From contig NZ_JAQNDL010000003.1 in the NCBI RefSeq assembly GCF_028368995.1, positions 1,504,001 to 1,568,000 on the forward strand: a stretch of DNA of 64,000 nucleotides, in the 5' to 3' direction. The notes beneath the pieces are model-generated. The model made no database searches and had not been told where the DNA came from. It worked only from the letters and a program-made list of their open reading frames with translations. Of the stretch, positions 752 to 57,927 are shown piece after piece (position 1 is the stretch's first letter; each line of letters begins with the position of its first letter). The position numbers were made by a program, and so were the translations under genes. The DNA comes from Nannocystis bainbridge (GTDB lineage Bacteria; Myxococcota_A; Polyangia; Nannocystales; Nannocystaceae).

Positions 752-769
752 GACATGACCCAAGAGACA
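752..769. repeat. TGTC-N6-GACA family site, variant (GACA TGAC CCAAGA GACA)
   Basis: One mismatch to consensus, preceded by GACA as in the arrays. Confidence 0.5.
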
Positions 770-995
770 GACGGTATCTCCTCACCGCGACGCATCGTCC
801 TGCCGCGAACATCCGATCGTCTCTGCGCCGAAGACAATCGTGCCACAGGCAGATCCGTCCGGCCGCGAGTCCGAGCTCGCGGCGCTGTCGTTGCTTTGGC
901 GTCTCCGATGGGACCTCCCGGTCGCGCAATGCTCTGGCCCGCTTCAATCTCTTGCTGCTGCAAGGATCGTTCATCCAAGCATTTCTACCGACCTG

Positions 996-1027
996 CCTGA
1001 ACGTACATGATGATGTGTTCAGGTCGC
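996..1027. promoter_or_regulatory. Palindromic operator-like site CTGAAC-N14-GTTCAG(GTCGC), copy 1
   Basis: CCTGAAC GTACATGATGATGT GTTCAGG TCGC just upstream of the double kinase; near-identical copy at 12448-12478. Confidence 0.55.
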
Positions 1028-1052
1028 AAGGACACCCGATGCTCGGGCGCGT

Positions 1053-3524
1053 ATGGCAACCTGGGCTGCGATGGACAGCTCCCCGACGCCGGCTCCGCGG
1101 ACCTATCCCGCGTGGCCCATCCATATCGAGGCCGGCTCCGACTACCTCGGCGAGGTGATCGACGGCCGCTACCGGATCCTCGAGCGCCTCGCCGTGGGCG
1201 GCATGGCCCACGTGTTCCTCGCCAAGGACTTGACCCGTCGCTGCCACGTGGCGCTCAAGCTCCTGCACCGGACCGGCCCGGAGTCGCGGCGGCGCTTCGA
1301 GGACGAGGCCGAGGTCCTCAGCAACATCCGCCACCCGCACATCGTCCGGACGCTCGCGTTCGGCCACACCCTCGACGCCCGGCCGTACATGGCGCTCGAG
1401 CACCTCGAGGGCGAATCACTGTCGCAGCGGCTCGCTCGCGGCCCTCTGCCGTGGCGCGAGGTCGCCGAGTTCGGCGCCCAGATCGCCGGAGCCCTGCACG
1501 CATTGCACCGCGCGGGCGTGGTGCATCGCGACGTCAAGCCCGACAACATCATGATCGCCCACGACGCCGGTCGGCCCGTCGCCAAGGTCATCGATCTCGG
1601 CCTCGCAAGCGTCGGCACTCCGTTCCACGAGGTCCAGGACGCCCGCTTCGCCTCACAGGTGCCCGAGCGCCACAAGACCGAGCTCGGTCGCGCGATCGGT
1701 ACCCCCGCATACCTCCCACCCGAAGCCGGTCTGCGCCCCGCCGAGCCGCGCCTCGACGTCTACTCGCTCGGCGCCACGCTCTATCTGCTGTGCACGGGGA
1801 TCTTGCCCGATCCGTCCGACCTCTCGCCGATCGCCGAGGTCTGTCCCGACAGCGACGCCCCTGACGACCTCTCGCGCTTGCTGCTCGCCGCGCTCGATCG
1901 CGAAGTCACCGAGCGCCTCCCTTCCGCCGATCACCTGCGGCGCGGGCTCGACGCGATCCTCGCCGCGCACCCCCAGACCTCGCGGCCGCTGTTCGGCGGT
2001 TGTTACGATCGCCTCGAGGTCATCGGCATCGGCGCCAGCGCCGTCGTCTACCGCGCCTCCGATCGTGCGCTGTCGCGGGAGGTCGCGCTCAAGGTCCTGC
2101 GCGCCGCCAGCCCGAGCGAGGACGATGCGCTCCGCTTTCGCCGCGCCGCCAAGATCCTGTCCGCGCTGCGCCACCCGAACATCCCGCAGATCCACCATTT
2201 CGGCGTCCATCCCGGCGATCCCGCCCGGGACGAAGGTCAGCGCTTCGCGGTGATGGAGCTGTGCCCCGGCTCGCCCGCGTCGCAATTCACCCGGCCTGAC
2301 CGGCACCTGCGACCCGACGAGGTGATCGCGGTGGGCCACCAGCTCGCGAGCGCCCTCGAAACCGTGCACGCGGCCGGCCTCGTCTACCGCGACCTCCACG
2401 TCGGCAACGTCCTGATCGCGCGCGGCGATCCGCCGCAAGCCTGGATCTTCGACTTCGATCAGGCGCAGGTGTCGCCCGAGTTCTACGCCCGCGTGACGGA
2501 GCGCTGGGCCACGCCCCCCGAAGATCGCATCGAACCAGCCCGCGAAAAGCCCTTGCAGCGCATGGACTACGCGCCGCCCGAGGTGCGCGCCGGGGCAGCC
2601 TTCACCACCGCGAGCGACGTGTTCGCGCTGGGCCTCCTGCTCTACCGCCTGCTCACCGGGCTGCGCCCGTTCCCACCCGCAGCCAGCGAGGCGACACCCG
2701 CCCGCAAGGTCTGCCGCGGCTGCCCCCCCGGCCTCGAGCATCTTCTGAAAAAGATGCTGCACGCGGACCCACGAGAGCGCCCGACGCTCGCGTGGGTGCA
2801 GACCAGCCTCGAGGACGAGCAGGCCGAGCTCGACGCCGAGCGCGAAGCGGAGCGCGAGGAGGCGGCCGCCAGCGCGTCCCCTCCCGCGACCGCGAGCCCG
2901 CCCGAGCCCGCAGCGGAGCCCGCTCCCCCGCGCGTCGCCGCGACGAACGCCCTCGGCCCAGCCCCGGCATCCGTCACCGCCCCACCGCGAAGGCTCGCCC
3001 GCCTCGCGCTCGTCCTGTTCGCAACGCTCGGCCTCGCCGCCGCCGGGTGGTGGTTCCGACCCGCCTCGCCCGCGCGCGAGCAGGTCCCCGCGACGCCAGT
3101 CACTCCCCCCGCCGTTCACGCCCATGACAATGTCCCCACGGACATGTCTCATAGAACACATGATTCCGCGCTCGACCCCCTACCCGTTCCACCGCCCATG
3201 CTCGCCCCGACCGCCGCGCCTATTGTCGAGACCCCGCACGAAACCGCCGCCACGACGCGCCCCACGCGTCCGCGCAAGCAGGACCCCGTGGCCGCCTGGG
3301 AGGCCCGCATGCGTAAAGTGGAGGCCCGCGCGCGCCGCTGCCTCGCCGCAGCCCGCACCGAGCCTCGCCGCGTCGTCGTGACCTGGACGCCCGGCGCGCC
3401 CGCCGAGTTCGGCGGCGTCTCGTCCGGCTCGGTCCACGCGCAATGTCTCCGCGACGCGCTCGCCGGCCTCGACCTCCACGACCTCCGCCGCCGCCACACC
3501 TTCTTCGAAGAGAAGCAGCCTTGA
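1053..3524 (+). CDS. Ser/Thr protein kinase with two tandem kinase domains, Pro/Ala linker and a TM helix
   Basis: Domain 1: GGMAHVF, VALK, HRDVKPDN, DLG, GTPAYLPPE. Domain 2: GIGASAVVY, VALK, YRDLHVGN, DFD, DYAPPE. TM LALVLFATLGLAAAGWWF. Start may be ATG 1071. Confidence 0.92.
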   Translation: MATWAAMDSSPTPAPRTYPAWPIHIEAGSDYLGEVIDGRYRILERLAVGGMAHVFLAKDLTRRCHVALKLLHRTGPESRRRFEDEAEVLSNIRHPHIVRTLAFGHTLDARPYMALEHLEGESLSQRLARGPLPWREVAEFGAQIAGALHALHRAGVVHRDVKPDNIMIAHDAGRPVAKVIDLGLASVGTPFHEVQDARFASQVPERHKTELGRAIGTPAYLPPEAGLRPAEPRLDVYSLGATLYLLCTGILPDPSDLSPIAEVCPDSDAPDDLSRLLLAALDREVTERLPSADHLRRGLDAILAAHPQTSRPLFGGCYDRLEVIGIGASAVVYRASDRALSREVALKVLRAASPSEDDALRFRRAAKILSALRHPNIPQIHHFGVHPGDPARDEGQRFAVMELCPGSPASQFTRPDRHLRPDEVIAVGHQLASALETVHAAGLVYRDLHVGNVLIARGDPPQAWIFDFDQAQVSPEFYARVTERWATPPEDRIEPAREKPLQRMDYAPPEVRAGAAFTTASDVFALGLLLYRLLTGLRPFPPAASEATPARKVCRGCPPGLEHLLKKMLHADPRERPTLAWVQTSLEDEQAELDAEREAEREEAAASASPPATASPPEPAAEPAPPRVAATNALGPAPASVTAPPRRLARLALVLFATLGLAAAGWWFRPASPAREQVPATPVTPPAVHAHDNVPTDMSHRTHDSALDPLPVPPPMLAPTAAPIVETPHETAATTRPTRPRKQDPVAAWEARMRKVEARARRCLAAARTEPRRVVVTWTPGAPAEFGGVSSGSVHAQCLRDALAGLDLHDLRRRHTFFEEKQP
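3131..3158. repeat. TGTC-N6-GACA tandem array (2 units) inside kinase C-terminal linker
   Basis: TGTC CCCACG GACA TGTC TCATAG AACA. Confidence 0.75.
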
Positions 3525-3537
3525 CCGAGAGACCGCC

Positions 3538-9031: not shown

Positions 9032-10564
9032 TCACCGCACGAAGATCTGCCCTGGCTTCCCGTTGAGGTCGCCGCCCACGCACGAATCGTAGCACGTGCG
9101 CCACCCGCTCGCCGTCAGCCCGAACCCGTTACCGTCGACATCGCGCATGTGGAACGAATCCACGTTGCTCGTGTAACCCAGCCACGCCAGCATCGACGCG
9201 CCGTTCGGGCACGCCCCCTGGATCGCCGTCGGCTCGCCGACATAGTAGTGCGTGTTTTGATGCAGCTCGACGAAGTTCGCCACCACCGTATGGCGATAGA
9301 TCGTGCCTGCGAACGCCTTGCTGCCGGCGTGGTCGCCGAGCAGCACCTGCGTGAACTGGACCGCCTTGCCTGCCACGTCGAGCGCGTACGCGTTGCCGTC
9401 GTCGGCCAGCGAGCCCTGGGCGGCGCGCCAGCCGAAGCTGCCGCCGTTGTCGGTGTCGGCGCAGCCGGGGGCTGACGGCGTGTTGCGGGAGCGGCCGACC
9501 AGCGTCCAGCCGCCGCCGTCGATCGTCATCTCGCAGTACACGTCGAACGGCGCGCGCGGCCCGTCGCCGTCGACATCGATCTGGTACACCCCGTTCGGCG
9601 TGCTCGGCAGCCCGCTCTTCAGCTGCTTGCAATTCGTCGGCAGGTTGCACGAGCCGTTGACGCACGCTCCGGTCACGCAGTCCGTGTCGGCCGCGCAGTT
9701 CTTGCCCTTGTTGCAGGCCTTGCAGCTGCCGCCGCAGTCGATGTCGGTCTCCGGGCCGCTCTGGATCGCGTCGCTGCAGCTCGACACCTTGCATTCGATC
9801 GTGCACGCGTCGAGGTTGCTGAGGTTGGCGTCGTCGCACTCCTCGACGCCCGCCTGCACCTTCCCGTCGCCGCACTCCGCGTTCAAGCACGTGCTGAGGC
9901 ACGCGTCGGTGTCGTCCTGATTGCCGTCGTCGCACTCCTCGTTCGGCTGCAGCGCCCCGTCGCCGCACGTGGCGCTCTTGCACGTCGCCGTGCACGCGTC
10001 GGCGTCGTCGTCGTTGCCGTCGTCGCACGCCTCGCCCGGCCCCACGATCCCGTCGCCGCACACCGCCAGCGCGCACGCGTTGGTGCAGTCGTCGGTGTCC
10101 GTCTCGTTGCCGTCGTCGCACGCCTCGCCCGGCCCCACGATCCCGTCGCCGCAGCCGGCCGCCTCGCACGTGCTCGTGCAGTCGTCGCCGTCGTCGGGGT
10201 TGCCGTCGTCGCACGCCTCGACCCCGTCCAGCACCAGCCCGTCGCCGCACACCGCCAGCTTGCAGCCGGCCGTGCATTCGCCGGTGTCGTCGTTGTCGCC
10301 GCCGAGGTCGCACTCCTCCTCGCCCTCGATCTTGCCGTCCCCGCACACCGGCACCGGCGGCTCCATCCCGCCGCTGCCCATGTCGTCGCCCGGACCGCCG
10401 CTGGTCGGTGCGCTCGTCGACACGTCGGTCGCCGAGCCCATCGTCGACGGCGCCGTCATCGTCGCCGGCATGGTGGCAAATCCCGTCGATGGATCCTCGC
10501 CGGTGGCGCAGGCGACGAGGAAGGACGCGGCGACGACGAGGCACGGGGCGGCGATTCGGCTCAC
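9032..10564 (-). CDS. Lipoprotein with Myxococcus Cys-rich repeats (DUF4215-like) and fibrinogen-like YCDxxxxGGGW C-terminal domain
   Basis: Lipobox LVAC; six CGDG...E.CD repeats; ETDIDCGG; GVYQIDVDG...VYCEMTIDGGGWTLV. Probable GTG start 10564 (ORF track starts 10645). Confidence 0.88.
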   Translation of the reverse strand: MSRIAAPCLVVAASFLVACATGEDPSTGFATMPATMTAPSTMGSATDVSTSAPTSGGPGDDMGSGGMEPPVPVCGDGKIEGEEECDLGGDNDDTGECTAGCKLAVCGDGLVLDGVEACDDGNPDDGDDCTSTCEAAGCGDGIVGPGEACDDGNETDTDDCTNACALAVCGDGIVGPGEACDDGNDDDADACTATCKSATCGDGALQPNEECDDGNQDDTDACLSTCLNAECGDGKVQAGVEECDDANLSNLDACTIECKVSSCSDAIQSGPETDIDCGGSCKACNKGKNCAADTDCVTGACVNGSCNLPTNCKQLKSGLPSTPNGVYQIDVDGDGPRAPFDVYCEMTIDGGGWTLVGRSRNTPSAPGCADTDNGGSFGWRAAQGSLADDGNAYALDVAGKAVQFTQVLLGDHAGSKAFAGTIYRHTVVANFVELHQNTHYYVGEPTAIQGACPNGASMLAWLGYTSNVDSFHMRDVDGNGFGLTASGWRTCYDSCVGGDLNGKPGQIFVR

Positions 10565-10739
10565 GGCGAGCCACGCTAGCAGACGCGGTCGCACCTCCTC
10601 AAGCCGCGCGAATTCGCCGCTGCGCACCCGACGATACGCCTGCAAGCGCCGGAGGCCCGGGCACGCCCCCGCAGTCCCGCGGCGTCGCCGACGCCACCCG
10701 CATCACCGCCGCGCCACGCACCGGCAGCGCCAGCAAAAT

Positions 10740-10757
10740 CACATGTCCGAAGAGACA
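10740..10757. repeat. TGTC-N6-GACA site between divergent genes
   Basis: CACA TGTC CGAAGA GACA. Confidence 0.7.
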
Positions 10758-10850
10758 TCCGCTCGACATCGCCGCCGGCACCGGGCCGTGACATCGAAGT
10801 CGTGGAGACACGCACTGGCAGCGCCCGCGGCTGTCGTGCATCCTGCGAGC

Positions 10851-12128
10851 ATGGCCTCGATGACGCCGCGTCACGTATCGATCTGGGGCGCATTGACGTG
10901 CTTGCTGGCAGCATGCGGGCCCGGGGCGCCCGGTCATACCGCCTCCGCATCGAGCTCGGGGTCCGGCTCCGCCGCGAGCTCCGACGCCACCGCCCCGCCG
11001 AGCACCGGCGGCCCCGGCCCCACCGCCGCCAGCGCGAGCGAACCCGCCGTCACCGACACCGACCCCGGCCCCGACACGGCGCCCACCACCACGGCGACCT
11101 CGAGCGCCGACACCGGGCCCTCGCACGACGATACCTCCGACACCGACATCCCCCCGCAGCCGGGCGTGCCGCTGGACCAGTTCACCTGCGCCGACGCCCG
11201 CTGGCGCTTCGTCGAGCCGACGCTGAGCTCACCGGCCAACGCCCGCGTCGATTCGCGCGGCCACCTGCGGCTCACGAGCCATTGGGCGCTGCTGGAATTC
11301 GACGAGACCGGCGCGCTCGTGGGCCAGATCGAAGTCCCGCCGCCGTGGGGCTGGGGCGGTATCGACGCGGCCGACAATTTCTACGTGTCGTTCCTCGACG
11401 AGGGGGCCGCGCGCAAGGGCCTGCGCAAGCTCGCGGTCACCGGCGAGTCATTGTGGCAGACCGATCGCGGCCCCGCACAGGCCAACGATTTCTCCGGCCG
11501 CGTGACGGTCGCGCCCGACGGCACGACGCTCATCGCCGGCCGCAACGATACGCGCGCCGAGCGTTACGACCCCGCCGGCGCGCTCGTGTGGGACAAGACG
11601 CTGGCCGACAAGCGCTTCGACGATCCATTCGCCATGAACACCGCCGGGGTCGCCGCGGCGATCCGCTACGGCGTCGACGGAGCCGTCCTCGCCCTCGCGC
11701 CCGACGCCTCCGTGCTGTGGGAGCGGCCCTTCGGATCGCGGGGTCGAGCGTTCGCCGACATCGACGAGGGCGGCGTGGTGGTCGCGGCGTCGCTGAGCTG
11801 GCCGCCCCACGTGATCCGCCTGGCGAGCGACGGCGCGGTGCTGTGGGACAAGACGATCGAGCTGCCGATGCTCGCCGACGGCCACGTCTCCGCGGTCGCC
11901 ACCAACGAGGTCGGCGCGATCGCCCTGGCGATCGGCGCGACCCTCCACGACACGCAGGTGGCCCTGGCGCTGCGGCTCGGCCCCGACGGCGAGGTGACCG
12001 CGCTGCACGCCTGCGATCCCACCAGCGATGGCCAGGGCATCGCGCTCGACGAGGCCGGCACGATCTACCTGGCCGGCGTCGTCTGGGCCGAGGACGGCGA
12101 GCACCTGTTCGCGGTCGCGCTCGAATGA
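10851..12128 (+). CDS. Lipoprotein with Ser/Thr/Pro stalk and PQQ-like beta-propeller
   Basis: Lipobox LAAC; repeats such as YDPAGALVWDK, LAPDASVLWER, LASDGAVLWDK. Upstream part of ORF 9921..12128 is the antisense shadow of the previous gene. Confidence 0.82.
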   Translation: MASMTPRHVSIWGALTCLLAACGPGAPGHTASASSSGSGSAASSDATAPPSTGGPGPTAASASEPAVTDTDPGPDTAPTTTATSSADTGPSHDDTSDTDIPPQPGVPLDQFTCADARWRFVEPTLSSPANARVDSRGHLRLTSHWALLEFDETGALVGQIEVPPPWGWGGIDAADNFYVSFLDEGAARKGLRKLAVTGESLWQTDRGPAQANDFSGRVTVAPDGTTLIAGRNDTRAERYDPAGALVWDKTLADKRFDDPFAMNTAGVAAAIRYGVDGAVLALAPDASVLWERPFGSRGRAFADIDEGGVVVAASLSWPPHVIRLASDGAVLWDKTIELPMLADGHVSAVATNEVGAIALAIGATLHDTQVALALRLGPDGEVTALHACDPTSDGQGIALDEAGTIYLAGVVWAEDGEHLFAVALE

Positions 12129-42710: not shown

Positions 42711-44474
42711 ATGCGCCTGCGCCCCCAGGTCCTCCGCGGCGGTACCGTGTTCGATGGCCTCGGCGGCCCGGCCCGCGCGCTCGACGTATTGGTCGACGAC
42801 GGCGCGATCTCAGCCCTTCTGCCACCGGGCACGGCCGTGGGGGACGACGTGGAGCGAGTCGACGCGCACGGCTGCTGGGTCACGCCTGGCTTCATCGACA
42901 TCCACACCCATTACGACGCCGAGCTCGAGCTATGGCCAGCGCTCGGCGAATCCGTGCGTCACGGCGTCACCACCGTGTTCCTCGGCAGCTGCGGATTGAG
43001 CCTGGCGGTCGGCGAGCCGGATGAATTGGCCGACATGTTCTGCCGGGTCGAGGGCATCCCGCGCGCCTGCGTCGCGCCGATGCTGGCCCGCGTCAAGGAC
43101 TGGGACGGGCCGGCCAACTATTTACAGCACCTGGAGCGGCTCCCGCTCGGTCCGCACGTGGCGGCATTGCTGGGGCATTCGGCGATCCGCGCCGCCGCCA
43201 TGGGCCTCGGCCGCAGCCTCGACGCGCGCGCCGCCGCCCGCCCCGACGAGCTCGCGCGCATGAAGGCGCTGCTGCACGAGGCCCTCGACGCCGGCTTCCT
43301 CGGCCTGTCGATCAACACCCTGCCGTGGGACAAGATGGACGGCCAGCAATTCCGCAGTCGCCCGACCCCTTCGGTGTTCGCCTCGTGGTCGGAGTATCGC
43401 GCCCTCGCCGGGGTCCTGCGCGCCCGCGGCCGCGTGCTCCAGGGCGTGCCCGACGTCTCGACCAAGTTCAACGTCCTGCTGTTCGCCGCTCTCAGCACCG
43501 GCCTCGGCCGCGCCGCGCTCAAGACCACCCTGATCGCCATGATGGACGCCCCGCCGGCCCGCGGCGTCCACCGCGTCGCCGGCGTATTGACGCGACTCGT
43601 CAATCACCTCTGCGGCGGCGACCTGCGGTTTCAGGCCCTGCCCAATCCTTTCGACATGTGGGTCGACGGCATCGAGGTCCCGGTGTTCGAGGAGTTCGCC
43701 GCCGGCACCGAGGCGCTCCACCTCGAGCACCCGGGCGATCGCGCCGCGCTCCTGCGCGATCCCGCCTACCGCCGGCGGTTCCGCCGGCAATGGCGCGATC
43801 GCCTGCGCGGCCGCGCCTACCACCGCGACCTCGGCCGCACCCGGATCCTCGCCTGTCCCGAAGACCAGCTGGTCGGCAAGTCGTTCGCCGAGGTCGCCGA
43901 ATCGCGCGGCCGCGACCCGATCGACACCCTCCTCGACCTGGTCGCCGAGCACGGCACTGCCCTGCGCTGGCAGACGAGCGTCGCCAACGACCGCCCCGAC
44001 CGGCTCGAGTGGATCGTCCGCCACCCGTTCGCCCAGATCGGCTTCTCCGACGCCGGCGCGCACCTGCGCAACATGGCCTATTACAACTTCCCGCTGCGCC
44101 TGCTGCGAATGGTCCGTGCCGCCGCCGCGCGCGGGCGCCCGATCATGAGCGTCGAGCGGGCCGTGCACCGCGTCACCGGCGAGCTCGCGGCATGGTTCGG
44201 CGTCGACGCCGGCCGGCTCGCCCCGGGCGCCCGCGCCGACCTCGTCGTCGTCGACCCCGAGGCCCTGGACGACCGCCTCGACGCCCTCCACGAGCAGCCC
44301 GTCGCCCCGCCCGCCGCCGGCGGCCCGTTCAGCGAGCTGCGGCGCCTGGTCCGCCGCAACGACGCCGCCGTGCGCCGCGTCCTCGTCGCCGGCCGCACGG
44401 CCTGGCAGGACGGCGCGCTCGCGCCCGAGCTCGGCCGCGAGCGCTTCGGCGCCGTGCTCCGCGCCGGCGCATGA
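42711..44474 (+). CDS. N-acyl-D-amino-acid deacylase family amidohydrolase
   Basis: GGTVFDG, PGFIDIHTHYD, GVTTV, FSDAGAH, ADLVVVDP. Confidence 0.92.
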   Translation: MRLRPQVLRGGTVFDGLGGPARALDVLVDDGAISALLPPGTAVGDDVERVDAHGCWVTPGFIDIHTHYDAELELWPALGESVRHGVTTVFLGSCGLSLAVGEPDELADMFCRVEGIPRACVAPMLARVKDWDGPANYLQHLERLPLGPHVAALLGHSAIRAAAMGLGRSLDARAAARPDELARMKALLHEALDAGFLGLSINTLPWDKMDGQQFRSRPTPSVFASWSEYRALAGVLRARGRVLQGVPDVSTKFNVLLFAALSTGLGRAALKTTLIAMMDAPPARGVHRVAGVLTRLVNHLCGGDLRFQALPNPFDMWVDGIEVPVFEEFAAGTEALHLEHPGDRAALLRDPAYRRRFRRQWRDRLRGRAYHRDLGRTRILACPEDQLVGKSFAEVAESRGRDPIDTLLDLVAEHGTALRWQTSVANDRPDRLEWIVRHPFAQIGFSDAGAHLRNMAYYNFPLRLLRMVRAAAARGRPIMSVERAVHRVTGELAAWFGVDAGRLAPGARADLVVVDPEALDDRLDALHEQPVAPPAAGGPFSELRRLVRRNDAAVRRVLVAGRTAWQDGALAPELGRERFGAVLRAGA

Positions 44475-44482
44475 ATCATCGC

Positions 44483-44668
44483 TGTCCCCGAGGACATTTT
44501 TTACAAAGGACATTCCCGAATCGCCGGATTCGGCACCGCGCTGGCGAACCGTCGACACCCGACGATGACGCGCCGATCGGTGAACCCCTCGAGGCGCCGT
44601 CACCGGCGCACACGGACATGTCCCCGCGGACATGTCCGTGAATCACCACTGACATGTCCCTACGGACA
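44483..44668. repeat. Cluster of TGTC-N6-GACA sites between convergent genes
   Basis: 44483 TGTC CCCGAG GACA; 44615 GACA TGTC CCCGCG GACA TGTC; 44651 GACA TGTC CCTACG GACA. Confidence 0.85.
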
Positions 44669-44670
44669 GC

Positions 44671-45651
44671 TCACTTCTTCTCGCACTCGCCCGGGGCGGC
44701 GAGCCCGACCCCCGCGCTCAGGCGGGCGCAATCGTTGCCGTAGGTCTTGCCGTCGCAGCCGCACACCGGGGTGTAATCGAACGTGCACGCCTCGGGCTTG
44801 GCCCGGCAGGTCCCGCCGATGTCCGCGCCGCCGCACTGGCTCGGGTCGCAGAACTGGCCCTCGCCGCACGAGAGCCCGCGGCTCCCCCCGCACTCCGGGT
44901 TATCCGCCGCCGGCGCCGCCGCGCCCGCGCGCGTGTAGATCTCGCTGGTCACCAGCGCCGGCTTGGTCCCGTTCGGGCCCGTCACCTCCGACGGCGAGGC
45001 CGCGACGAGGATCCCCTCGACCGTCTCGTACATCACCTGGCGGACGGCGTCCTGAATCGCCTGCGACGCCCCGCTGGCCGCAAAATCGACGCCCGAGACC
45101 AGCGAGTCCCAGCCGGTGTTGAGGCGGAACGCGTGCGCCATCGGGCACGGCATCGCCGAGCACTTGGCATGGATCCCGCGCAGCCGATAAAACAGCCCCG
45201 TCGGCTCCGAGCCCACGCGCCCGACCCAGCCTTCGCTGACCTGCAGCACCCCGACGTCGGCGAAGTTCGGATCGGCCTCGCGCCCGATCGTCCCGCGGAC
45301 CAGCGCGTGCTTGTCGGCGAACGCCCCGAGGAACGTGTTCTGGTTGTCCGCGTCGAGCTTCAGCGCCGCCAGGTCGACGGTGCCGACGTAGCACTCCTTG
45401 GCGACCTTGCCGTCGGCGCAGGTCGTCTCGTCCTGATTGACGCGCTGGACGAAGAACCCGCCGCAGGCCGGCGCCGCGCACTTGCGGACATCGCGGCGCG
45501 TCACCACGTAGAACGTCTCCTGCTCGGCCGCGGCGGGCCCACTCCCATCGTGGTCCTCGTCAGGAGCCTTCGTCGCGGCGGGGCTACCGCACGCGGAAGA
45601 GAGCGACAAAACAGAGGCAAAGGCCAACAAGACAGACGATGAATTGTGCAT
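44671..45651 (-). CDS. Lipoprotein with DUF6748-like domain and C-terminal Kazal-type inhibitor domain
   Basis: SSAC lipobox; RRDVRKCAAPACGGFFVQRVN...C.DG...ECYV; Kazal ACTFDYTPVCGCDGKTYGNDC. Confidence 0.85.
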   Translation of the reverse strand: MHNSSSVLLAFASVLSLSSACGSPAATKAPDEDHDGSGPAAAEQETFYVVTRRDVRKCAAPACGGFFVQRVNQDETTCADGKVAKECYVGTVDLAALKLDADNQNTFLGAFADKHALVRGTIGREADPNFADVGVLQVSEGWVGRVGSEPTGLFYRLRGIHAKCSAMPCPMAHAFRLNTGWDSLVSGVDFAASGASQAIQDAVRQVMYETVEGILVAASPSEVTGPNGTKPALVTSEIYTRAGAAAPAADNPECGGSRGLSCGEGQFCDPSQCGGADIGGTCRAKPEACTFDYTPVCGCDGKTYGNDCARLSAGVGLAAPGECEKK

Positions 45652-45926
45652 GGCGATGAATGACCCCGCTGAGAGGCGCGGGAGTTCTATGCCATGAGAC
45701 GCACGGTGCAACGGCCCCGGCCTCGCGCTCGCTCGTGACATAACGATGCATCGCCCCCGCGATCCGCCGCCCGACGTACGCCGCTGGCCGCACCGCCGCG
45801 TACATCGGCGCCCTCGCCCGCGCCGCGATGAAAGGATGTCCTCGCAACAATGTCACGCGGATGTGACCGACCCCGCGCCGGTGATGCCGGCAAAAGCCGG
45901 CACCATGCCCGTTTACCGGAAGAACC

Positions 45927-46111
45927 TGTCCTTCGGGACATCTCCGTTCGACGCCCTTACACCTGCCCGGCCAAGTTCGCCGTCGACATGACGTCGCAAT
46001 CCTCACGGGACGAGGCCGCTCCGGCGACGGGCGAATGAACCCCGGCCTGGGCAAGCGACATGTCCCAAAAGACATGCACGCGCCGCGCGCCGATCGAGTG
46101 TCTATTTGACA
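45927..46111. repeat. TGTC-N6-GACA sites in a long divergent intergenic region
   Basis: 45927 TGTC CTTCGG GACA; 46057 GACA TGTC CCAAAA GACA TGCA; N5 variant TGTC TATTT GACA at 46099. Confidence 0.75.
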
Positions 46112-46607
46112 TCCACCTCGCTGCGAGCTCCGAGGAGCGGGAGCCCCCCCGGCTCTTCACATTAATATTCCCCCATGTTCGACCGCTCGCCCGCGGCGGC
46201 CAGCGAGACACCGTACCCGCGAGGTCCATGTCCCGGCTGGCTTGGGCTCATACACGACGCGCTCGGCCCGGGTGCGCCCGAGCCGACTTTTCGCTGACGA
46301 TCCGCGCGCCCGGTCGCGCGAGCGTGCGCGGATCGGGGCCTTCCCGCCGCTGCTGTTCATCGCCACGATCGAGCGCGAGCGCCGACAGATCGGTCACGCC
46401 GACGGGGCACTCCCATGGCCGCGATCCATCACCACATACAGTGGTGTCATGGTCGACTCGCCCGGCCGAGCCGCCGCACGCAAGGCGCTCACGCTCGCCG
46501 CGTCGGCTCCGGTGCTCGAAGGACTCGGGGCTCGTCCGCGAGCCCGCCCTCGGAACACCCGCTCTCTCCTACCGAGCCGCGCGAAACCGTCCTGGCGCTC
46601 CCCCCGC

Positions 46608-46649
46608 TTGACAACTCGGATGACGGCCATCATATTACGGGCGTCATCC
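46608..46649 (+). promoter_or_regulatory. Sigma70-type promoter with overlapping TetR-type operators
   Basis: TTGACA (46608) -17 bp- CATATT (46631); palindromes ATGACGGCCATCAT and ATTACGGGCGTCAT; RBS GGAGG before GTG 46674. Confidence 0.7.
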
Positions 46650-46673
46650 CAACCCGCCCGCGTGGAGGCTGTC

Positions 46674-47255
46674 GTGACCGTCCGAACCGAACAGAAAGAG
46701 CGCACCCGGCAAGACATCCTCGCCTCGGCGACTCGCCTGCTGCGCGAGCGCGGCATCGCCGGCGCCAGCGTGGCCGAGGTGATGAAGGGCGCCGGCCTCA
46801 CCGTCGGCGGCTTCTACGCTCACTTCGAATCCAAGGAGGCGCTGGTCTCCGCCTCGTTGCGGCAATCGCTGCACGAGCTGTGGAGCGGCCTGGTCGCCGG
46901 CGCCGGCAAGCTGCGCGGCGTCGAGGCGGTCTCCTACGTGGTCCGCCGCTACCTCTCGCGCGCCCACCGGGACAACCCCGGCGAGGGCTGCCCGCTGCCG
47001 GCCGTGGTCGCCGACGTGGCGCAGGCCGGCGAGGCCGTGCGCGAGGGCCTGGCCCACGAGCTCGGCGATTACGCCGACGCGCTCGCCGCTTGCATCACCG
47101 ACGACACCGCCGCCAGTCGTCAGCGCGCGCTCGCCCTGTTGTCCCTCATGTACGGCGGCCTCAGCCTCGCGCGCGCCCTCAAGGGCACCCCCGTCTCCGA
47201 CGAGATCCTCAAGTCCTGCCGCGATTTCGCGCGACAGGCGTTCACCAACGAATAG
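46674..47255 (+). CDS. TetR family transcriptional regulator
   Basis: ILASATRLLRERGIAGASVAEVMKGAGLTVGGFYAHFESKEAL, GCPL. Confidence 0.93.
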   Translation: MTVRTEQKERTRQDILASATRLLRERGIAGASVAEVMKGAGLTVGGFYAHFESKEALVSASLRQSLHELWSGLVAGAGKLRGVEAVSYVVRRYLSRAHRDNPGEGCPLPAVVADVAQAGEAVREGLAHELGDYADALAACITDDTAASRQRALALLSLMYGGLSLARALKGTPVSDEILKSCRDFARQAFTNE

Positions 47256-47273
47256 TCCCGGAGGACATGTATC

Positions 47274-49796: not shown

Positions 49797-50753
49797 CTAT
49801 CTCCGGCGCATCACCGCGAACAGCTCCTGGCCGTGGCGGATCAGCGTCGACCCCTGCGCCACCGCCAGCTGCTCGATCGTGAAGCGCGGCGCGAACCGGC
49901 GCTCGACCTCGGCGCGGTCGGTCGTGAACGGCGGCCCGCCCGGGCGGCCGTGGGCGTAGAACAGCCCCACCAGCAAACCGCCGGGCTGCAGCGAATCCGC
50001 CACCGCCGTCACGTAGTCGTCGCGGCGGGCCGGATCGATCGCGCAGAAGCAGGTGTGCTCGACCACCAGGTCGAACGCCGGGGGCGAGCCCATGCGCGCG
50101 AACAGGTCCGCCACCGCGAACGCGATCGTCAGCTCCGGCGGCGTCATCGCCTGCGCCTGTGCGATCGCCGTCGGCGCCAGATCGATCGCCGTCACCGTCG
50201 CCCCGAGCCGCGCCAACAGCCGCGCCTCGTGCCCGCGGCCGCACCCGGGCACCAATGCTCGCATGCCCTCGGGGACATGTCCCGAGAACCATGTCACAAG
50301 CGGCGGCGCGGCCCGCCCGAGCTCCCAGCCGCCGGCGTTCGCCACGAACAGCGGGTCCCAGAACCTGGCCTCGCCCGGCCCGGCGCCAGCGACATCGGGC
50401 GCGCGCACCAGCAGCTCGCCGCGGATCGCCCGGGCCACCGGCGCGACCAGGTCGACCAGCGCCTCGAACTCCGCCGACGTCAGCCGCAGCCCCGGGTTCG
50501 CCGCGTCGGCCCGTGACAGCGTCGCCTGGCGGGCGAACGCATCGACCGCCAGCGCGCGCACCGGCGCCCCCGCCTGCCGCTCGAGCGCCGCCCACAGCGG
50601 CTCCGCGACCGCGTCGACCCGCGCGTAGGCCTCGCCCTCGAGGTCGCGGCCCTGCTCGCCGCGGGCGCCGACGACGACCGCGCGCACGTGATGGTCGGGT
50701 CGATGGAGCTTGAACGAACGGAGGTCCACGCGCGCGAACTTTGGCCGGTCCAC
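49797..50753 (-). CDS. Thiopurine/thiol S-methyltransferase (TPMT-like) with N-terminal extension
   Basis: FW...WELGRAAPPL, ALVPGCGRGHE, FDLVVEHTCFCAIDP, GGPPF; probable GTG start 50753. Confidence 0.85.
   Translation of the reverse strand: MDRPKFARVDLRSFKLHRPDHHVRAVVVGARGEQGRDLEGEAYARVDAVAEPLWAALERQAGAPVRALAVDAFARQATLSRADAANPGLRLTSAEFEALVDLVAPVARAIRGELLVRAPDVAGAGPGEARFWDPLFVANAGGWELGRAAPPLVTWFSGHVPEGMRALVPGCGRGHEARLLARLGATVTAIDLAPTAIAQAQAMTPPELTIAFAVADLFARMGSPPAFDLVVEHTCFCAIDPARRDDYVTAVADSLQPGGLLVGLFYAHGRPGGPPFTTDRAEVERRFAPRFTIEQLAVAQGSTLIRHGQELFAVMRRR
50264..50295. repeat. TGTC-N6-GACA family array inside the methyltransferase gene
   Basis: TGCC CTCGGG GACA TGTC CCGAGA ACCA TGTC. Confidence 0.65.
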
Positions 50754-50783: not shown

Positions 50784-51587
50784 ATGGAGCTCCACGACCT
50801 CCTCGCTCGCCTGTGGCGCGACTACGCCGCCTTGAACCCGCAGGTCGAGCGGGTCGGCGCCCTCCTTGCCGGGGCCGGCGAGCGCGTCGTCCACGACCAC
50901 ATCGCCCTGCGCACCTGGGGCGACCCGCGCTGCGACATCGAAGCGCTGGCGCGCCCGTTCGTGCGCGCCGGCTACCGCGCCGCCGGGGCCTACCGCTTCG
51001 CCGAGAAGCGCCTGGTCGCCCGCCACTTCGCCCACGACGACCCCGCGCTCCCGCTCGTCTTCATCAGCGAGCTGATCCTCGCCGAGTTCTCGCCTGACCT
51101 TCAGGACAGGGTGAGATGTCTCCTCGAACAGGTCCCCGAGGACATGTTCCAGGCGCCAGACCTGTGCGCGCGCGGCCGCCCGTGGAGGGTCGCCCACGCC
51201 GAGGTCGAGGCCCTGCGGCGCGAGAGCGAGTACGCCGCCTGGCTGGCCGCGTTCGGCTGGCGGGCCAACCACTTCACCGTCGCCGTCCACGAGCTCGCAA
51301 ACCTGTCCGAATTGCCCGCTCTCGACGCCTTCCTCGTCGCCCACGGCCTGCGCCTCAACACGGCAGGCGGCGAGATCAAGGGCTCGCCGGCGCAGGGCCT
51401 CGAGCAGTCGTCGACCCTGGCCGACGTCGTCGAAGTCGAATTCAGCGACGGCACCTTCGCCGTGCCCGCCTGCTACTACGAGTTCGCGCGCCGCTGGCCC
51501 GGCCCCGACGGCCGCCAGTTCCGCGGCTTCATCGAGGGCTCGGCCGACAAGATCTTCGAGAGCACCGACCGGGACTCCGCGTCGTGA
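50784..51587 (+). CDS. DUF1338 domain protein (VOC-fold dioxygenase-like)
   Basis: HDHIALRT, VFISEL, ESEYAAW, NHFTV, LEQSS, YYEFARR, ADKIFEST. Confidence 0.9.
   Translation: MELHDLLARLWRDYAALNPQVERVGALLAGAGERVVHDHIALRTWGDPRCDIEALARPFVRAGYRAAGAYRFAEKRLVARHFAHDDPALPLVFISELILAEFSPDLQDRVRCLLEQVPEDMFQAPDLCARGRPWRVAHAEVEALRRESEYAAWLAAFGWRANHFTVAVHELANLSELPALDAFLVAHGLRLNTAGGEIKGSPAQGLEQSSTLADVVEVEFSDGTFAVPACYYEFARRWPGPDGRQFRGFIEGSADKIFESTDRDSAS
51095..51148. repeat. TGTC-N6-GACA family array inside the DUF1338 gene
   Basis: TGAC CTTCAG GACA ... TGTC TCCTCG AACA GGTC CCCGAG GACA TGTT. Confidence 0.65.
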
Positions 51588-51922: not shown

Positions 51923-53083
<1,161 letters not shown>

Positions 53084-53086
53084 GGC

Positions 53087-53146
53087 TGTCCTGCGGGGCA
53101 TGTCCCCGAGGACCTGCGCCATCGGGCATGTCCTCACGGACATGCC
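53087..53146. repeat. TGTC-N6-GACA array (4 units, strict 14-bp period) filling a convergent intergenic gap
   Basis: TGTC CTGCGG GGCA TGTC CCCGAG GACC TGCG CCATCG GGCA TGTC CTCACG GACA TGCC. Confidence 0.85.
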
Positions 53147-53153
53147 CCTTCGT

Positions 53154-53915
53154 TCACGTCAGCACCCGCGACCCGTCGGCCGTCACGCAGAGGGTGTGCT
53201 CGAACTGGGCGCTCCACTTGCGGTCGGCGGTGACCACCGTCCAGCCGTCCTTCAGCACCTCGACCTCCGGGGTCCCGACGGTCAGCATCGGCTCGATCGT
53301 GAACACCATCCCCTCGCGCAGGCGCAGTCCCGTGCCGGCGCGGCCGACGTGGGCGATGTGCGGCGCCTCGTGCATGTGGCGGCCGATCCCGTGGCCGCCG
53401 AAGTCGCTGACCACCCCGTAGCCGCCGCGCCGCGCGACCTCGACGATCGCCGCGCCGATGTCGCCGAGCCGCGCCCCTGGCCGCACCGCCGCGATCCCGG
53501 CGTCGCGGGCCGCTCGCGTGGTCGTGACCAGCCGCTCCGCCTCCGCCGAGACCGCGCCGATGCAGAACGTCGCCGAGGTGTCGCCGTGGAACCCGTCGAG
53601 CTCGGTCGTCACGTCGACGTTGACGATGTCGCCGTCCTGCAGCACCACGTCGGCCCGCGGCACCCCGTGACACACCACCTCGTTGCGGCTCGTGCACACG
53701 CTCGCCGGAAACGGCCCCGGCCCCGCCCCGCGGTAGCCCAGCTGACTCGGCCGCCCGCCCCGCCGCGCGGTGTCCTCGCGCACCCACCCGTCGATCTGCC
53801 CCGTCGTCACCCCCGCGCGCAGCCGCTCCGCCACGTACGCCAGCGTACCTGCCGCCGCCGCCCCCGCGCGCTCGATCGCCGCGATCTCCCGCGGCCCGTA
53901 AATCGTCACCGACAT
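53154..53915 (-). CDS. map: Methionine aminopeptidase type I
   Basis: SVCTSRNEVVCHG, DIVNVD, FHGDTS, GHGIG..HE.P, FTIEPM, SAQFEHT. Confidence 0.95.
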   Translation of the reverse strand: MSVTIYGPREIAAIERAGAAAAGTLAYVAERLRAGVTTGQIDGWVREDTARRGGRPSQLGYRGAGPGPFPASVCTSRNEVVCHGVPRADVVLQDGDIVNVDVTTELDGFHGDTSATFCIGAVSAEAERLVTTTRAARDAGIAAVRPGARLGDIGAAIVEVARRGGYGVVSDFGGHGIGRHMHEAPHIAHVGRAGTGLRLREGMVFTIEPMLTVGTPEVEVLKDGWTVVTADRKWSAQFEHTLCVTADGSRVLT

Positions 53916-54225: not shown

Positions 54226-54549
54226 GTGAGCCTGACCCAGATCAGCTACTTCGTCGCCGTCGCCGAGGAGCAGCACGTCGGTCGCGCGGCGCAGCGGCTG
54301 CACGTCTCGCAGCCGCCCGTGACCCGGCAGATCCACCAGCTCGAGGACGAACTCGGCACTCGCCTGTTCGACCGCACCCCTCGCGGCGTCCGCCTCCTGC
54401 CCGCCGGCGAGCGCTTCCTCGCCCACGCCCGGGCGATCCTCGCCCAGGTCGACGCTGCCCGCCGGGCCGTCTCCGGACCTGCCTCGAACGACATGGACGA
54501 TGGGACATGTGCTTCGAGCCATGTCCCGAACGCTCTCGGCCGTGACTGA
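54226..54549 (+). CDS. Short LysR-type regulator (HTH only, no effector domain)
   Basis: YFVAVAEEQHVGRAAQRLHVSQPPVTRQIHQLEDELGTRLFDRTPRGV; ends after the linker helix. Confidence 0.8.
   Translation: MSLTQISYFVAVAEEQHVGRAAQRLHVSQPPVTRQIHQLEDELGTRLFDRTPRGVRLLPAGERFLAHARAILAQVDAARRAVSGPASNDMDDGTCASSHVPNALGRD
54490..54525. repeat. Degenerate TGTC-N6-GACA array in the tail of the short LysR
   Basis: GACA TGGA CGATGG GACA TGTG CTTCGA GCCA TGTC. Confidence 0.6.
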
Positions 54550-55798: not shown

Positions 55799-56341
55799 TC
55801 AGGGACCGCAGCCGGTGTCCGCAAAGATGTCGCACTCGACGACGATGATGCCGTCCTCCGCCAGGTGGAAGCCATTCGTTCCGCCGTCGAAGCACACGTT
55901 CGCCGCGCACTTCTCGACCGTCGTCGTCGGGCACTGCGCCGGCGCGGCGAAGCATACCATGCACGTCGGGTCGTCCGTCTCGACGCACTCGGTCGACCCG
56001 CACGCCGGGATGTCCGAGTCGAACCAGCGGCAGAACTGCCCCGCCCGGCACGTCCCGCACGGGTTCACGCCGCCGGGCTCGGGCGGCTCGGTATCCGAGA
56101 CGGTCCCGGGCTCGCTCGTGCTGCCCGAGCTCGTGTCGGTCGTCGAGGTCGAAGTCGTGCTCGTGCTCGTCGTCGCGGTGGACGTCGAGGTCGGCTGGTC
56201 GGTCTCCGACGACCCGGACGACTCGGTCGCTCCCGTCGGGTCCGTCGCCGTCGCATCCGAATCCGTCTCCTTCGATTTGTCGTGACAGCCGAGCAGTAAG
56301 AGCCCGAACAACAAGCAAGGCAAGCGGTGCAAATAAAGCAT
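55799..56341 (-). CDS. Small Cys-rich lipoprotein with Ser/Thr stalk
   Basis: LLGC lipobox, S/T/D linker, Cys-rich C-terminus. Confidence 0.75.
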   Translation of the reverse strand: MLYLHRLPCLLFGLLLLGCHDKSKETDSDATATDPTGATESSGSSETDQPTSTSTATTSTSTTSTSTTDTSSGSTSEPGTVSDTEPPEPGGVNPCGTCRAGQFCRWFDSDIPACGSTECVETDDPTCMVCFAAPAQCPTTTVEKCAANVCFDGGTNGFHLAEDGIIVVECDIFADTGCGP

Positions 56342-56570
56342 GCACCCAGCTTACCACCGCCGCGGCGGCTCGAAAAGCTCCTGCGTGCCCCGGCCCGGTG
56401 CCCGCCGAGCCGGCCGCGCGTGCTCCCGCTCGGCTCGTCTCTCCTCCCGGGCGACCATGGGAACCCCGCCGATGCGCCCTCGGTCTCGCGCTCACGCCGA
56501 TGCTCCTGTACTCCCCCGCGCACCGACGCCGGCCATCTCACGCGATTGTCCATTCCCTACACAACTCATA

Positions 56571-56592
56571 GACATGTCTCAAAGGACATATC
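56571..56592. repeat. TGTC-N6-GACA array
   Basis: GACA TGTC TCAAAG GACA TATC. Confidence 0.8.
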
Positions 56593-57106
56593 ATCATTGC
56601 TTCAATCACGCGAGCAACCCAGCCGCGCCACGAAGCCCGCCCTCCGGCCAGCTCTCGGCTCGACCTCACGGCCCCGCGGCTCGACGAAGACGGCAGCGTG
56701 CACGGACCGGAAGCCCGTCGTCCGTAGCCCGATCTCCCAGGCCGCCGAGCATCCCGTCGTCATGGTTTCTGAGTCGCTCGTCGTCCGCCAGCTGCACCCC
56801 GGGGCGCGTCTTCATCCGGCCGAGCCAAAACACACGCCGAGCAGGCGAGCGTGGCGCTCGTGCCGACGCCGTTCGCGCGCACGCGGTCGTCCGCCGTTTC
56901 GACGCCATCTTCGCGCTGCGGCGGGCGCGTCGCCGTCACGTCACCTGCCTCAACCTCGCGTTTGCCGCTCTCCTCGCTCACGACCTCGCACCACCCCTTC
57001 ATCGGTCGACCGCGTTCGCAAGGGCTTCCTCTGGTAAAAGCACGCACCGAGCCCGGGCTCCGCATGCTCGTCCGTCCGGGCCTCGCCTTGCTCTCGACAG
57101 GTGCCC

Positions 57107-57865
57107 ATGTCCTTCCCAGCGCGGGTCATCCGCTACATCACCTCGATCCTCGTCTGGACTCTCGGGTTTGCATGGATGACCGTGACCATCCTCTTCCTCG
57201 TGGTCTTCGGGCTGGTCCGCGGCGGAGGTCCCGAGCTCAACCGCAGGGCAGCGCAGTGGATGTCGCACGTCACCCGCCTCGCGTACCCGCGCTTTCGCGT
57301 GATCTACGACCCTGATTTCGACCCGACGCGGCCGAGCGTGTTCTGTCAGAACCACGTCAACTTCATGGACGCCCACGTCGCCTGTCGCGTGATCCCGGGG
57401 CCGTTCTGCGGGTTGATGCTCGCCTCGCACTTCAAGATCCCCGCGTACGGCTGGATCATGCGGATCACCAGCGGGATCCCCGTGCCCTCCGCCAAGGGCG
57501 GACGCACGACCGCGCTCATGCTCGCCGCTCGCGATCGCATCGCTCGCGGGATCTCCATCCTCGTGTTTCCGGAGGCCCACCGGACCCTCGATGGCCACCT
57601 CCAGCCGTTCAAGCAAGGCGTCTTCTTCATGGCCCGCGACGCCGGCGCCCCGGTGGTCCCGATCGCCGTCCATGGCGCCTACGAGGTCAATCACAAGGGC
57701 ACCTGGCTGTTCAGGCGCGGGCCCGTGACCGTGTGGGTCGGGCCCCAGGTCGAGACCGAGGGCCTCGACGACGAAGCCCTCGCCGTCGTGATCGAGGAGA
57801 TGCGGGCGGACATCCACGAGTTCGTCGAGACCGGCTTCGTCCGCGAGCGACCCGCGGCGGCGTGA
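57107..57865 (+). CDS. Lysophospholipid acyltransferase (PlsC-like)
   Basis: NHVNFMD (HxxxxD), FPEAHRT, PFKQG, PVVPIA. Confidence 0.92.
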   Translation: MSFPARVIRYITSILVWTLGFAWMTVTILFLVVFGLVRGGGPELNRRAAQWMSHVTRLAYPRFRVIYDPDFDPTRPSVFCQNHVNFMDAHVACRVIPGPFCGLMLASHFKIPAYGWIMRITSGIPVPSAKGGRTTALMLAARDRIARGISILVFPEAHRTLDGHLQPFKQGVFFMARDAGAPVVPIAVHGAYEVNHKGTWLFRRGPVTVWVGPQVETEGLDDEALAVVIEEMRADIHEFVETGFVRERPAAA

Positions 57866-57905
57866 CGGCGGCCCTGCCGCTCGCGGAGCTCCCGCGCAAT
57901 CCACC

Positions 57906-57927
57906 GACATGTCCTCGCGGACATGTC
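57906..57927. repeat. TGTC-N6-GACA array between convergent genes
   Basis: GACA TGTC CTCGCG GACA TGTC. Confidence 0.85.

Follow-up and report, generated by a model that had tools for sequence, protein, structure and literature searches.

The study of over-represented genome words has repeatedly revealed something of chromosome biology: repetitive extragenic palindromic (REP) elements, uptake sequences, Chi and matS each gave one such insight. In E. coli, gyrase and IHF also dock on the REP elements and bacterial interspersed mosaic elements (BIMEs). Known uptake sequences are asymmetric, and pairs of them in inverted orientation are not set at any fixed distance, while the sites of MatP (matS), Noc (Noc-binding sites, NBS) and SlmA (SlmA-binding sites, SBS) number in the tens and mark or avoid one chromosome domain. 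For the large-genome myxobacterial clade we know of almost nothing on nucleoid or transcription-unit organisation. Here we analyse a dispersed palindrome, TGTC-N6-GACA, in a 64-kb stretch of Nannocystis DNA (the window; G000:C2:1504001-1568000, where G000 is an assembly of 11.05 Mb and 71.5% G+C in five contigs). On balance, and judging from sequence, we think that its copies are sites for a dimeric, duplex-DNA-binding protein specific to Nannocystis and two sister genera, a putative nucleoid or gene-boundary factor.

The Nannocystis motif resembles the REP/BIME (REPIN) elements of enterobacteria and pseudomonads, which go with RAYT transposases, in being a short, lineage-specific palindrome that occurs in hundreds to thousands of copies, behind genes or between convergent genes and often clustered. 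It differs in its unit of 14-20 bp with a free centre, where a REP hairpin is conserved over 20-40 nt, in arrays with a strict 14-bp phase, in the lack of both pairing covariation and a genomic PF01797 match, and in that a third of its sites lie inside genes under DNA-level selection. With the DNA uptake sequences (DUS) of Neisseria and the uptake signal sequences (USS) of Pasteurellaceae it shares a frequency of about 1 per kb, presence in genes and spacers, conservation across relatives, restriction to a genus or family and abundance behind genes. The DUS/USS form, an oriented, non-palindromic word of 9-12 bases with inverted pairs at no fixed spacing, was not what we found: the Nannocystis unit is a symmetric palindrome around a fixed 4-bp centre, with one exact spacing and phased arrays, and its sites are spaced along the chromosome no more evenly than by chance. 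Like matS, NBS and SBS, it is a palindrome of 12-14 bp suited to a dimer, and its copies are spread across the chromosome with little tie to promoters. To our knowledge its sequence differs from the sites of MatP, Noc and SlmA, and there are thousands of copies on all contigs, tied to gene ends and in abutting arrays. We rejected this class on finding 196-1,494 exact sites per contig and no domain restriction.

An earlier note on this stretch had listed 19 exact copies of TGTC-N6-GACA, picked out by eye. All 19 were found in their places and there were no others, whereas dinucleotide-preserving shuffles of the window (n = 100) held 0.71 on average (standard deviation 0.96, maximum 5) and none of them reached 19. 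Counting TGTC-Nk-GACA over the whole genome for gaps of 0-19 gave a single spike at k = 6, as that note had expected, with 3,663 copies compared with 29-175 at every other gap; a secondary echo appeared at k = 20 (TGTC-N20-GACA, 984 copies). Control palindromes of the same composition had fewer than 180 copies each. When all 4-mer palindromes were scanned without bias at gaps of 0-14, TGTC-N6-GACA ranked first, and five of the next eight signals were the same motif in other registers (registers of the motif include ATGT-N8-ACAT with 2,000 copies, CATG-N10-CATG with 3,736 and GTCC-N4-GGAC with 2,651). Degenerate units were found with a symmetrised weight matrix built from the genome's own sites, which gave 12,776 matches at 12 bits compared with 95 for the reversed matrix. 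Because a lone strong junction between units can exceed 12 bits by itself, we preferred to count sites with two recognizable halves (each at least 5 bits), of which there are 9,579, 6,775 of them scoring at least 18 bits. The motif is thus chromosome-wide, with exact copies on all five contigs. Full-text literature searches, with supplements and most subscription journals outside their scope, returned no description of it, so that it is undescribed in the sense of not found rather than not published; the string GACATGTC matched p53 papers only.

The full motif reads aCATGTCC-N4-GGACATGt, with a symmetric logo of about 20 bp, a-C-(A/c)-TGTC-C-Y-N-N-R-G-GACA-(T/g)-G-t, that is alike for coding and spacer sites. 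Beyond about 3 bp, the flanks have no family consensus. The 3,663 exact sites contain 854 different centre hexamers, which bears out free variation of the 6-bp spacer except at its edges: these are non-random (C/T at positions 4-5, G/A at 8-9), and the unit is therefore better written TGTCC-N4-GGACA with aCA/TGt flanks. Neighbouring units overlap by the self-complementary CATG, which results in a strict 14-bp period. This phasing is seen in the window at 24185/24199/24213, 53087/53101/53115/53129/53143 and 54480/54494/54508, and genome-wide in the counts of GACATGTC (2,237), GACA-N14-TGTC (1,305) and TGTC-N10-TGTC with its reverse complement (3,246). Chains of half-sites comprised TGTC-N6-GACA alone (2,477), the abutting pair GACA/TGTC alone (972) and mixed chains of up to eight half-sites. 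Counted as exact 14-bp runs, there were 4,998 singles, 986 doubles, 360 triples, 169 runs of four, 119 of five, 38 of six, two of seven and two of eight. The flanks fall into two classes, aCA/TGTCC, which can abut through CATG, and aCC/TGTCC...GGACA/GGt, which cannot; genome-wide in G000, GGACAGGT occurs 849 times and ACCTGTCC 1,081 times. Sites in genes more often have C at the flanking position, and the form CTGTCC...GGACAG is frequent among the few sites of another genus of the family, g28 (G054, loci L143-L158).

To place the sites we used a gene map from our own crude codon-statistics caller (8,283 genes, 85% coverage). Exact sites have a density of 0.14 per kb in predicted coding sequence, 0.47 in divergent spacers, 1.3 in tandem spacers and 3.2 in convergent spacers. 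At least one matrix match is present in 849 of 1,380 convergent spacers (62%), 1,239 of 3,904 tandem spacers (32%) and 318 of 1,496 divergent spacers (21%), and matches reach 11.9 per kb in convergent spacers compared with 0.53 per kb in coding sequence. In tandem spacers the density peaks 0-20 nt from the upstream stop codon and drops steadily from there. A match lies in 2,441 of the 6,171 gene 3' regions (40%), and several arrays take up all the sequence between the stops of a convergent gene pair. Base composition does not account for the bias, because the unit is A+T-richer than the genome, yet the A+T-richer promoter spacers hold the fewest units. A site roughly every 3 kb, as had been proposed, holds as an average density for exact units (3,663 in 11.05 Mb; about 1 per kb with variants) but not as a regular picture, since placement follows gene ends. 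Density is roughly even on the five contigs, and gaps between clusters are near-Poisson (coefficient of variation 0.97-1.19), the largest being 30-44 kb. Both results contradict the suggestion of a chromosome-domain mark of the matS kind. One stretch, G000:C1:1100000-1300000, has 4 exact sites per 100 kb compared with about 20-55 in most other 100-kb bins of that contig, and a GC skew near zero; the stretch may have been acquired recently or may hold one giant gene cluster.

About 36% of the exact sites (1,333 of 3,663) and 3,515 of the 9,579 two-half sites lie in predicted genes. When synonymous codons were swapped among all positions of the same amino acid (n = 4), 54-74 exact sites remained, so that the observed number is enriched 21-fold over this codon-shuffled null, while in-frame control gaps (k = 3, 9 and 12) stayed at the null. 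Of the exact sites, 968 are more than 200 nt from either gene end; the G+C content at third codon positions (GC3) flanking them is 0.90, compared with 0.93-0.94 at random positions of the same genes, indicating that they are truly coding. Each reading frame of the unit demands a rare codon (ACA, 2.2% of Thr; GGA, 2.7% of Gly; TGT, 9.9% of Cys), which means that coding sites are kept against codon preference. They also show frame preferences.

For conservation we aligned about 1.1 Mb of syntenic DNA from four other Nannocystis genomes. All eight core bases were kept at 27 of 53 intergenic sites compared with 52 of 212 matched control windows (Fisher p = 0.0003), and at 48 of 77 coding sites compared with 137 of 308 controls (Fisher p = 0.007). 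Identity was highest in the core in both classes: 0.894 in the core, 0.741 in the flanks and 0.599 in the centre of intergenic sites, and 0.922, 0.842 and 0.812, respectively, in coding sites, where orthologues align without gaps. The claim that only half-sites and their spacing are conserved thus stands. We tried to anchor 13 site-bearing window spacers in the relatives, of which two convergent ones were usable. Both hold exact or degenerate units in five of five genomes, differing in number, position and centres. Beside the DUF6748/Kazal gene, the stop-adjacent unit has kept its place in four of five genomes with centres cctacg, cctcaa, ccttcg and cgttcg. In two genomes (the G001 and G010 orthologues of 44475-44670 and 53084-53153), blocks of about 45-95 bp with one unit each have expanded in tandem. 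Minisatellite-like expansions of about 36-95-bp blocks, again with one unit each, were also seen at G000:C2:1217471, C2:2323868 and C2:1484190, and they differ between species.

Counting TGTCC-N4-GGACA in 71 genomes of the family Nannocystaceae (17 genera), where the reversed-word control gave 0-10 copies, revealed that enrichment is limited to three of the 17 sampled genera:

Genus g1: 11 of 11 genomes, including the source genome, with 114-2,090 copies each.
Genus g2: five of five genomes, with 87-169 copies each.
Genus g4: seven of seven genomes, with 67-696 copies each.
Genus g28: eight genomes, with 5-20 copies each, a weak signal.
Thirteen other genera: 40 genomes, with at most 11 copies each.

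None of 160 genomes from other Myxococcota families was enriched (at most 13 copies each, the reversed-word control being similar in most). The array word GACATGTC-N6-GACATGTC is also present in g4 (90 and 22 copies) and g2 (4 copies), with none of its control. The earlier note had not picked up this range of three genera, the bias to the first 0-20 nt after stops, the coding share of about 36% or the between-species conservation of half-sites.

Base pairing within the unit left little trace. Watson-Crick pairs at positions 4/9, 5/8 and 6/7 were observed 2,165, 1,209 and 987 times compared with 2,091, 1,222 and 963 under independence. G1/C12 is almost invariant, and T2/A11, in the middle of the would-be stem, accepts any base, with 1,889 single changes compared with 1,987 perfect sites. 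Compensated double changes at T2/A11 showed no consistent excess: A-T (25) and G-C (78) were at chance and only C-G (146) was raised. In 3,758 tandem spacers oriented by transcription there was no G-U signature (320 G-U variants compared with 275 C-A), a non-wobble pair being equally skewed. The stable CUUCGG loop was not favoured in the sense strand of 1,189 oriented sites (CTTCGG 28, CCGAAG 37), and neither a T-run after the unit in transcript orientation nor a U-tract in the logo was seen.

Direct base read-out by a symmetric dimer fits these results best: it would account for the spacing of one helical turn, the unread centre, the pairing-blind tolerance, the conservation of half-sites, the selection inside genes and the phased arrays. 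Side-by-side alignment of such a protein, as proposed before, is accordingly still the best-fitting reading. Each half of the dimer would read T0, G1, C3 and C4 of a-C-A-TGTCC, one turn of the helix away from the other half, and the four bases at the centre would go unread. The self-complementary outer CATG would be shared by neighbours, giving head-to-tail rows of as many as eight dimers at 14-bp intervals. Selection retains the sites, which have built up in places that tolerate or use them, 0-20 nt after stops and above all between convergent genes, with a thinner layer in genes at the cost of rare codons. The most likely role would be that of an abundant nucleoid-associated or transcription-unit-boundary protein. 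That a protein reads the motif, that it reads duplex DNA and what its binding does we infer from the motif, its phasing, placement, conservation and clade restriction; the functions suggested in the earlier note (nucleoid organisation, domain marking, insulation, self-marking) are guesses. Comparable geometry is found in MetJ met-boxes, where abutting palindromic units are bound side by side, and in phage 434 operators (ACAA-N6-TTGT), which are 14 bp long with 4-bp halves and a 6-bp unread centre. Those systems use a handful of promoter sites, whereas Nannocystis would use thousands behind genes.

Two described proteins were considered as readers. The canonical inverted motif of PadR is ATGT-N8..10-ACAT (PMC3506622), a form that the Nannocystis motif has in the register ATGT-N8-ACAT (2,000 copies). 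The T of ATGT nearest the centre is, however, the least conserved core base in Nannocystis, and a search for the PadR domain (PF03551) gave 0 matches in the genome at E <= 0.001, with a positive control in 14 of 14 genomes. We rejected PadR because the register fits but the domain match is absent. CdbA of Myxococcus xanthus is a ribbon-helix-helix nucleoid protein described as having a moderate sequence preference, hundreds of sites in genes and spacers and little effect on transcription; its motif, as the text rather than the logo of the source gives it, is a direct repeat with 4-bp separation, from 569 ChIP peaks (PMC7156744). The Nannocystis repeat is inverted, with a much higher specificity and many more copies than in this description, and CdbA was rejected as the reader on the grounds of its direct repeat.

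Several points weigh against a nucleoid or gene-boundary protein. The reader itself did not turn up, in checks that covered PadR, CdbA and neighbouring genes without a systematic proteome search. A position just after stop codons is the pattern of terminators and REP elements, and a nucleoid protein would not require it. A perfect unit can be folded into a stem of 7-10 bp, and one might take the raised symmetric variant TGCCC-N4-GGGCA (146) for a compensated pair. The genomes compared are closely related, and the window region was counted in all four relatives; intergenic conservation may be somewhat inflated, as the aligner may pair non-orthologous motif copies in spacers. Because the gene caller is crude, coding and intergenic counts are approximate. 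Finally, few protein genes have a classical terminator-like hairpin behind them (94 of 6,171), which leaves room for a transcript-ending role of the motif.

As for neighbouring genes, no recurrent regulator was seen beside 16 low-copy sites of G054 (genus g28; the GC3-based open-reading-frame filter is poor at 66% GC) or beside 15 sites sampled in G013 and G011 (where the same filter is weak). A dimeric DNA-binding protein of this kind would be within reach: the sharp site suits affinity capture, and the range of three genera gives a clean phyletic profile for its gene. The motif joins features that are not found together in REP elements, uptake sequences, Chi or matS, namely a free centre, an exact 14-bp register, 21-fold enrichment in genes, purifying selection on half-sites and occupancy of most convergent junctions.

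A more specific version, which we regard as rather unlikely though worth stating, is a boundary system in which the clade-specific dimer would polymerise in 14-bp register after stops and mark about 60% of convergent junctions. It would stand there as a road-block or an insulator, bringing transcription units to an end or keeping them apart, and would also shape the nucleoid. If this were true, it would be a bacterial answer to CTCF, Reb1, mTERF and similar factors that set boundaries or terminate transcription at specific sequences, in a genome whose protein genes seldom have a classical terminator behind them. A reader of the boundary or road-block type would introduce a new principle to bacteria.

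We consider it quite unlikely that the units are REP-like selfish or structural hairpins, multiplied or maintained by an enzyme other than RAYT and inserted harmlessly in gene 3' ends. The bias to 3' ends and convergent spacers is typical of REP/BIME elements, the palindrome can make the 7-10 bp stem, the family is clade-restricted with copy number varying about ten-fold within genus g4 (67-696), and orthologous spacers vary in unit number and carry the 36-95 bp tandem block expansions. Yet a search for the RAYT/Y1 transposase domain (PF01797) gave 0 matches in G000 (completeness 90.5%; the control search was positive in 6 of 14 genomes). The free centre, with its 854 spacers, means that the units are not copies of one master, and no family consensus extends past about 3 bp of flank. 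There is no covariation, with uncompensated mid-stem mismatches in about half of the sites, and the 36% of exact sites that lie in frame in genes arose via point changes rather than insertions, as their gapless orthologues indicate. We rejected membership of the RAYT/REP group given the missing PF01797, pairing at the level of independence and 854 centres among 3,663 sites. The earlier view that these are neither REP-type hairpins nor copies of a mobile element agrees with the absent covariation, the free position 2/11 without compensation and the lack of a Y1 transposase.

An RNA element is improbable in our estimation: here a transcribed 3' hairpin would end transcription or protect the mRNA, possibly with a sequence-specific RNA-binding protein. 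Such an element would explain the peak 0-20 nt after stops, and, as the stem of a palindrome is identical whichever strand is transcribed, it would suit convergent genes. A unit is present in 2,441 of 6,171 gene 3' regions compared with 94 that have a classical terminator-like hairpin under a strict rule, and one window unit is followed by T6. The two are not anticorrelated, since 49 of the 2,441 3' regions with the motif and 45 of the 3,730 without it have such a hairpin; a scan of the window gave seven terminator-like sites compared with 4.9 expected. Against an RNA element stand the logo without a U-tract, the lack of a sense preference among tetraloops and of a G-U advantage, the uncompensated stem mismatches and the thousands of units inside genes. 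Intrinsic (Rho-independent) terminators, G+C-rich stem-loops of variable sequence with a U-tract behind them, were rejected as a class, as no T-run follows the unit and its sequence is fixed while its pairing is not. Many tRNA genes of the genome are followed by textbook terminators of hairpin and T-tail, and the motif can stand behind one of these; a match lies at most 120 nt downstream of 8 of 102 tRNA genes (upstream, 3 of 102). True terminators with few motifs at tRNA genes indicate that the motif is not the ordinary terminator of this organism. At mRNA ends the motif may still act with the help of a protein or through a hairpin.

To a similar degree we doubt a self-DNA tag, that is, an uptake, recombination or defence signal that would be read by a protein and accumulate by biased uptake or conversion (molecular drive). 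A frequency of about 1 per kb with variants, occurrence in genes and spacers alike with frame preferences, and clade specificity would all suit such a tag. Concentration behind genes is also known from Neisseria uptake sequences, and the motif-poor stretches of 30-44 kb together with the poor 200-kb region are what recently acquired DNA would give. Known uptake words, however, are asymmetric and lack a fixed pair spacing, the exact spacing and phased arrays argue for cooperative binding at one place, and clusters are spaced no more evenly than at random (coefficient of variation 0.97-1.19). Should the motif prove to serve uptake or self-recognition, it would be the first tag of that kind with a palindromic form. 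A by-product of biased mutation or repair, with no reader and no function, has no direct support, although it would account for the reader protein not turning up, and we find it very hard to credit for ten specified bases at one exact spacing enriched 20- to 40-fold, with half-sites conserved while the centre drifts, as known repair biases shift word frequencies far less.

The window holds 38 two-half sites, including phased runs at 24185-24226, 53087-53114 and 54480-54521. The loci given as variant-only in the earlier note are real, with matrix matches at 756, 14768, 17495, 33600, 50264/50278, 51095/51117/51131/51145 and 54480/54494/54508 and a one-mismatch unit at 47254. The units are as follows (a slash marks abutting half-sites):

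756-769: variant unit, matrix score 18.7.
3131-3144: exact unit with an abutting phased unit at 3145-3158 (matrix scores 20.0 and 20.1), inside open reading frame 1071-3524, where the gene call is uncertain and the local sequence AT-richer.
10744-10757: single exact unit in divergent spacer 10565-10901.
14647-14660: exact unit in convergent spacer 14494-14795, which also holds variant unit 14768-14781.
17495-17508: variant unit, matrix score 27.2, in spacer 17429-17582.
21266-21293: two phased units (21266 variant, 21280 exact) inside a 903-aa gene, 19955-22663, minus strand.
23275-23302: two phased units (23289 exact) in tandem spacer 23218-23352.
24185-24226: three phased units (24185 and 24213 exact, 24199 variant; scores 24.0, 23.9, 24.2), beginning 17 nt past the stop at 24168 in convergent spacer 24169-24281.
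26212-26225: single exact unit 20 nt past the stop of a STAS-domain gene, 26246-26581, minus strand.
29349-29362: single exact unit 7 nt past the stop of gene 27542-29341.
33600-33613: variant unit of at least 12 bits in spacer 33399-33685.
35250-35263: single exact unit in tandem spacer 35060-35630.
39759-39772: single exact unit, 12 nt ahead of where a TPR gene, 39785-41473, is predicted to start.
44483-44496: exact unit 8 nt past the stop of an amidohydrolase gene, 42711-44474, with TTTTTT after it; no other unit of the window resembles a classical terminator as well.
44614-44668: array with exact units at 44619 and 44655, GGACA/TGTCC-ccgc-GGACA/TGTCC ... GACA/TGTCC-ctac-GGACA, 2 nt from the stop of the DUF6748/Kazal gene, 44671-45609, minus strand.
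45927-45940: single exact unit in the long divergent spacer 45610-46661.
46061-46074: single exact unit in the same divergent spacer (45610-46661), upstream of a TetR-family gene, 46662-47255.
47254-47267: one-mismatch unit, AGTCC-cgga-GGACA, beginning in the TetR gene stop codon (47253-47255) and ending 6 nt before the next start at 47274.
50264-50291: two phased variant units, scores 22.1 and 22.6.
51095-51158: variant units at 51095, 51117, 51131 and 51145 inside predicted gene 50784-51587.
53087-53156: five phased units at 53087, 53101, 53115, 53129 (exact) and 53143, the last three at the looser 12-bit level, occupying the entire 70-bp convergent spacer between an acyl-CoA dehydrogenase gene, 51923-53083, and an M24 peptidase gene, 53154-53915, minus strand; the orthologous spacers in four relatives hold exact or degenerate units that differ in number and position.
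54480-54521: three phased variant units overlapping the 3' end of a LysR-type HTH gene, 54226-54549.
56575-56588: single exact unit in divergent spacer 56312-57100.
57910-57928: exact unit and abutting TGTCC half in a 63-bp convergent spacer, reaching the stop of a short-chain dehydrogenase gene, 57929-58819, minus strand.

Window genes beside 5'-placed units are ordinary (TetR, TPR, BamB-like, LysR and others) and gave no lead to a reader protein. Elsewhere in the window, the minus-strand genes 9032-10564 and 24282-25880 encode paralogous proteins with DUF4215 repeats and a fibrinogen C-terminal-like domain, and the 374-aa predicted protein of 38335-39459 (minus strand) has a weak mid-protein match to the ribosomal L7/L12 C-terminal domain (27.6 bits, cut-off 25.9).

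We further noticed that terminator T-tails behind single tRNA genes of the source genome often continue as TTTGGTCGC or a close variant (C1:1004619, C1:2344487, C1:3087156, C3:1171397 and C4:370202), which may be a conserved post-terminator word. The same genome carries about 27 tRNA genes within 2.6 kb at G000:C2:2556665-2559233 and a second array of seven at C2:2356727-2357509 (found with aragorn). Such dense arrays are unusual for a myxobacterium and reminiscent of those in phages and some other bacteria. Finally, G011, from sister genus g2 (166 kb sampled, L128-L136), has an excess of TGTA-N2-TACA (15 compared with a median of 0) and TGCA-N2-TGCA (31 compared with 3), which may be a different dispersed palindrome in that genome.

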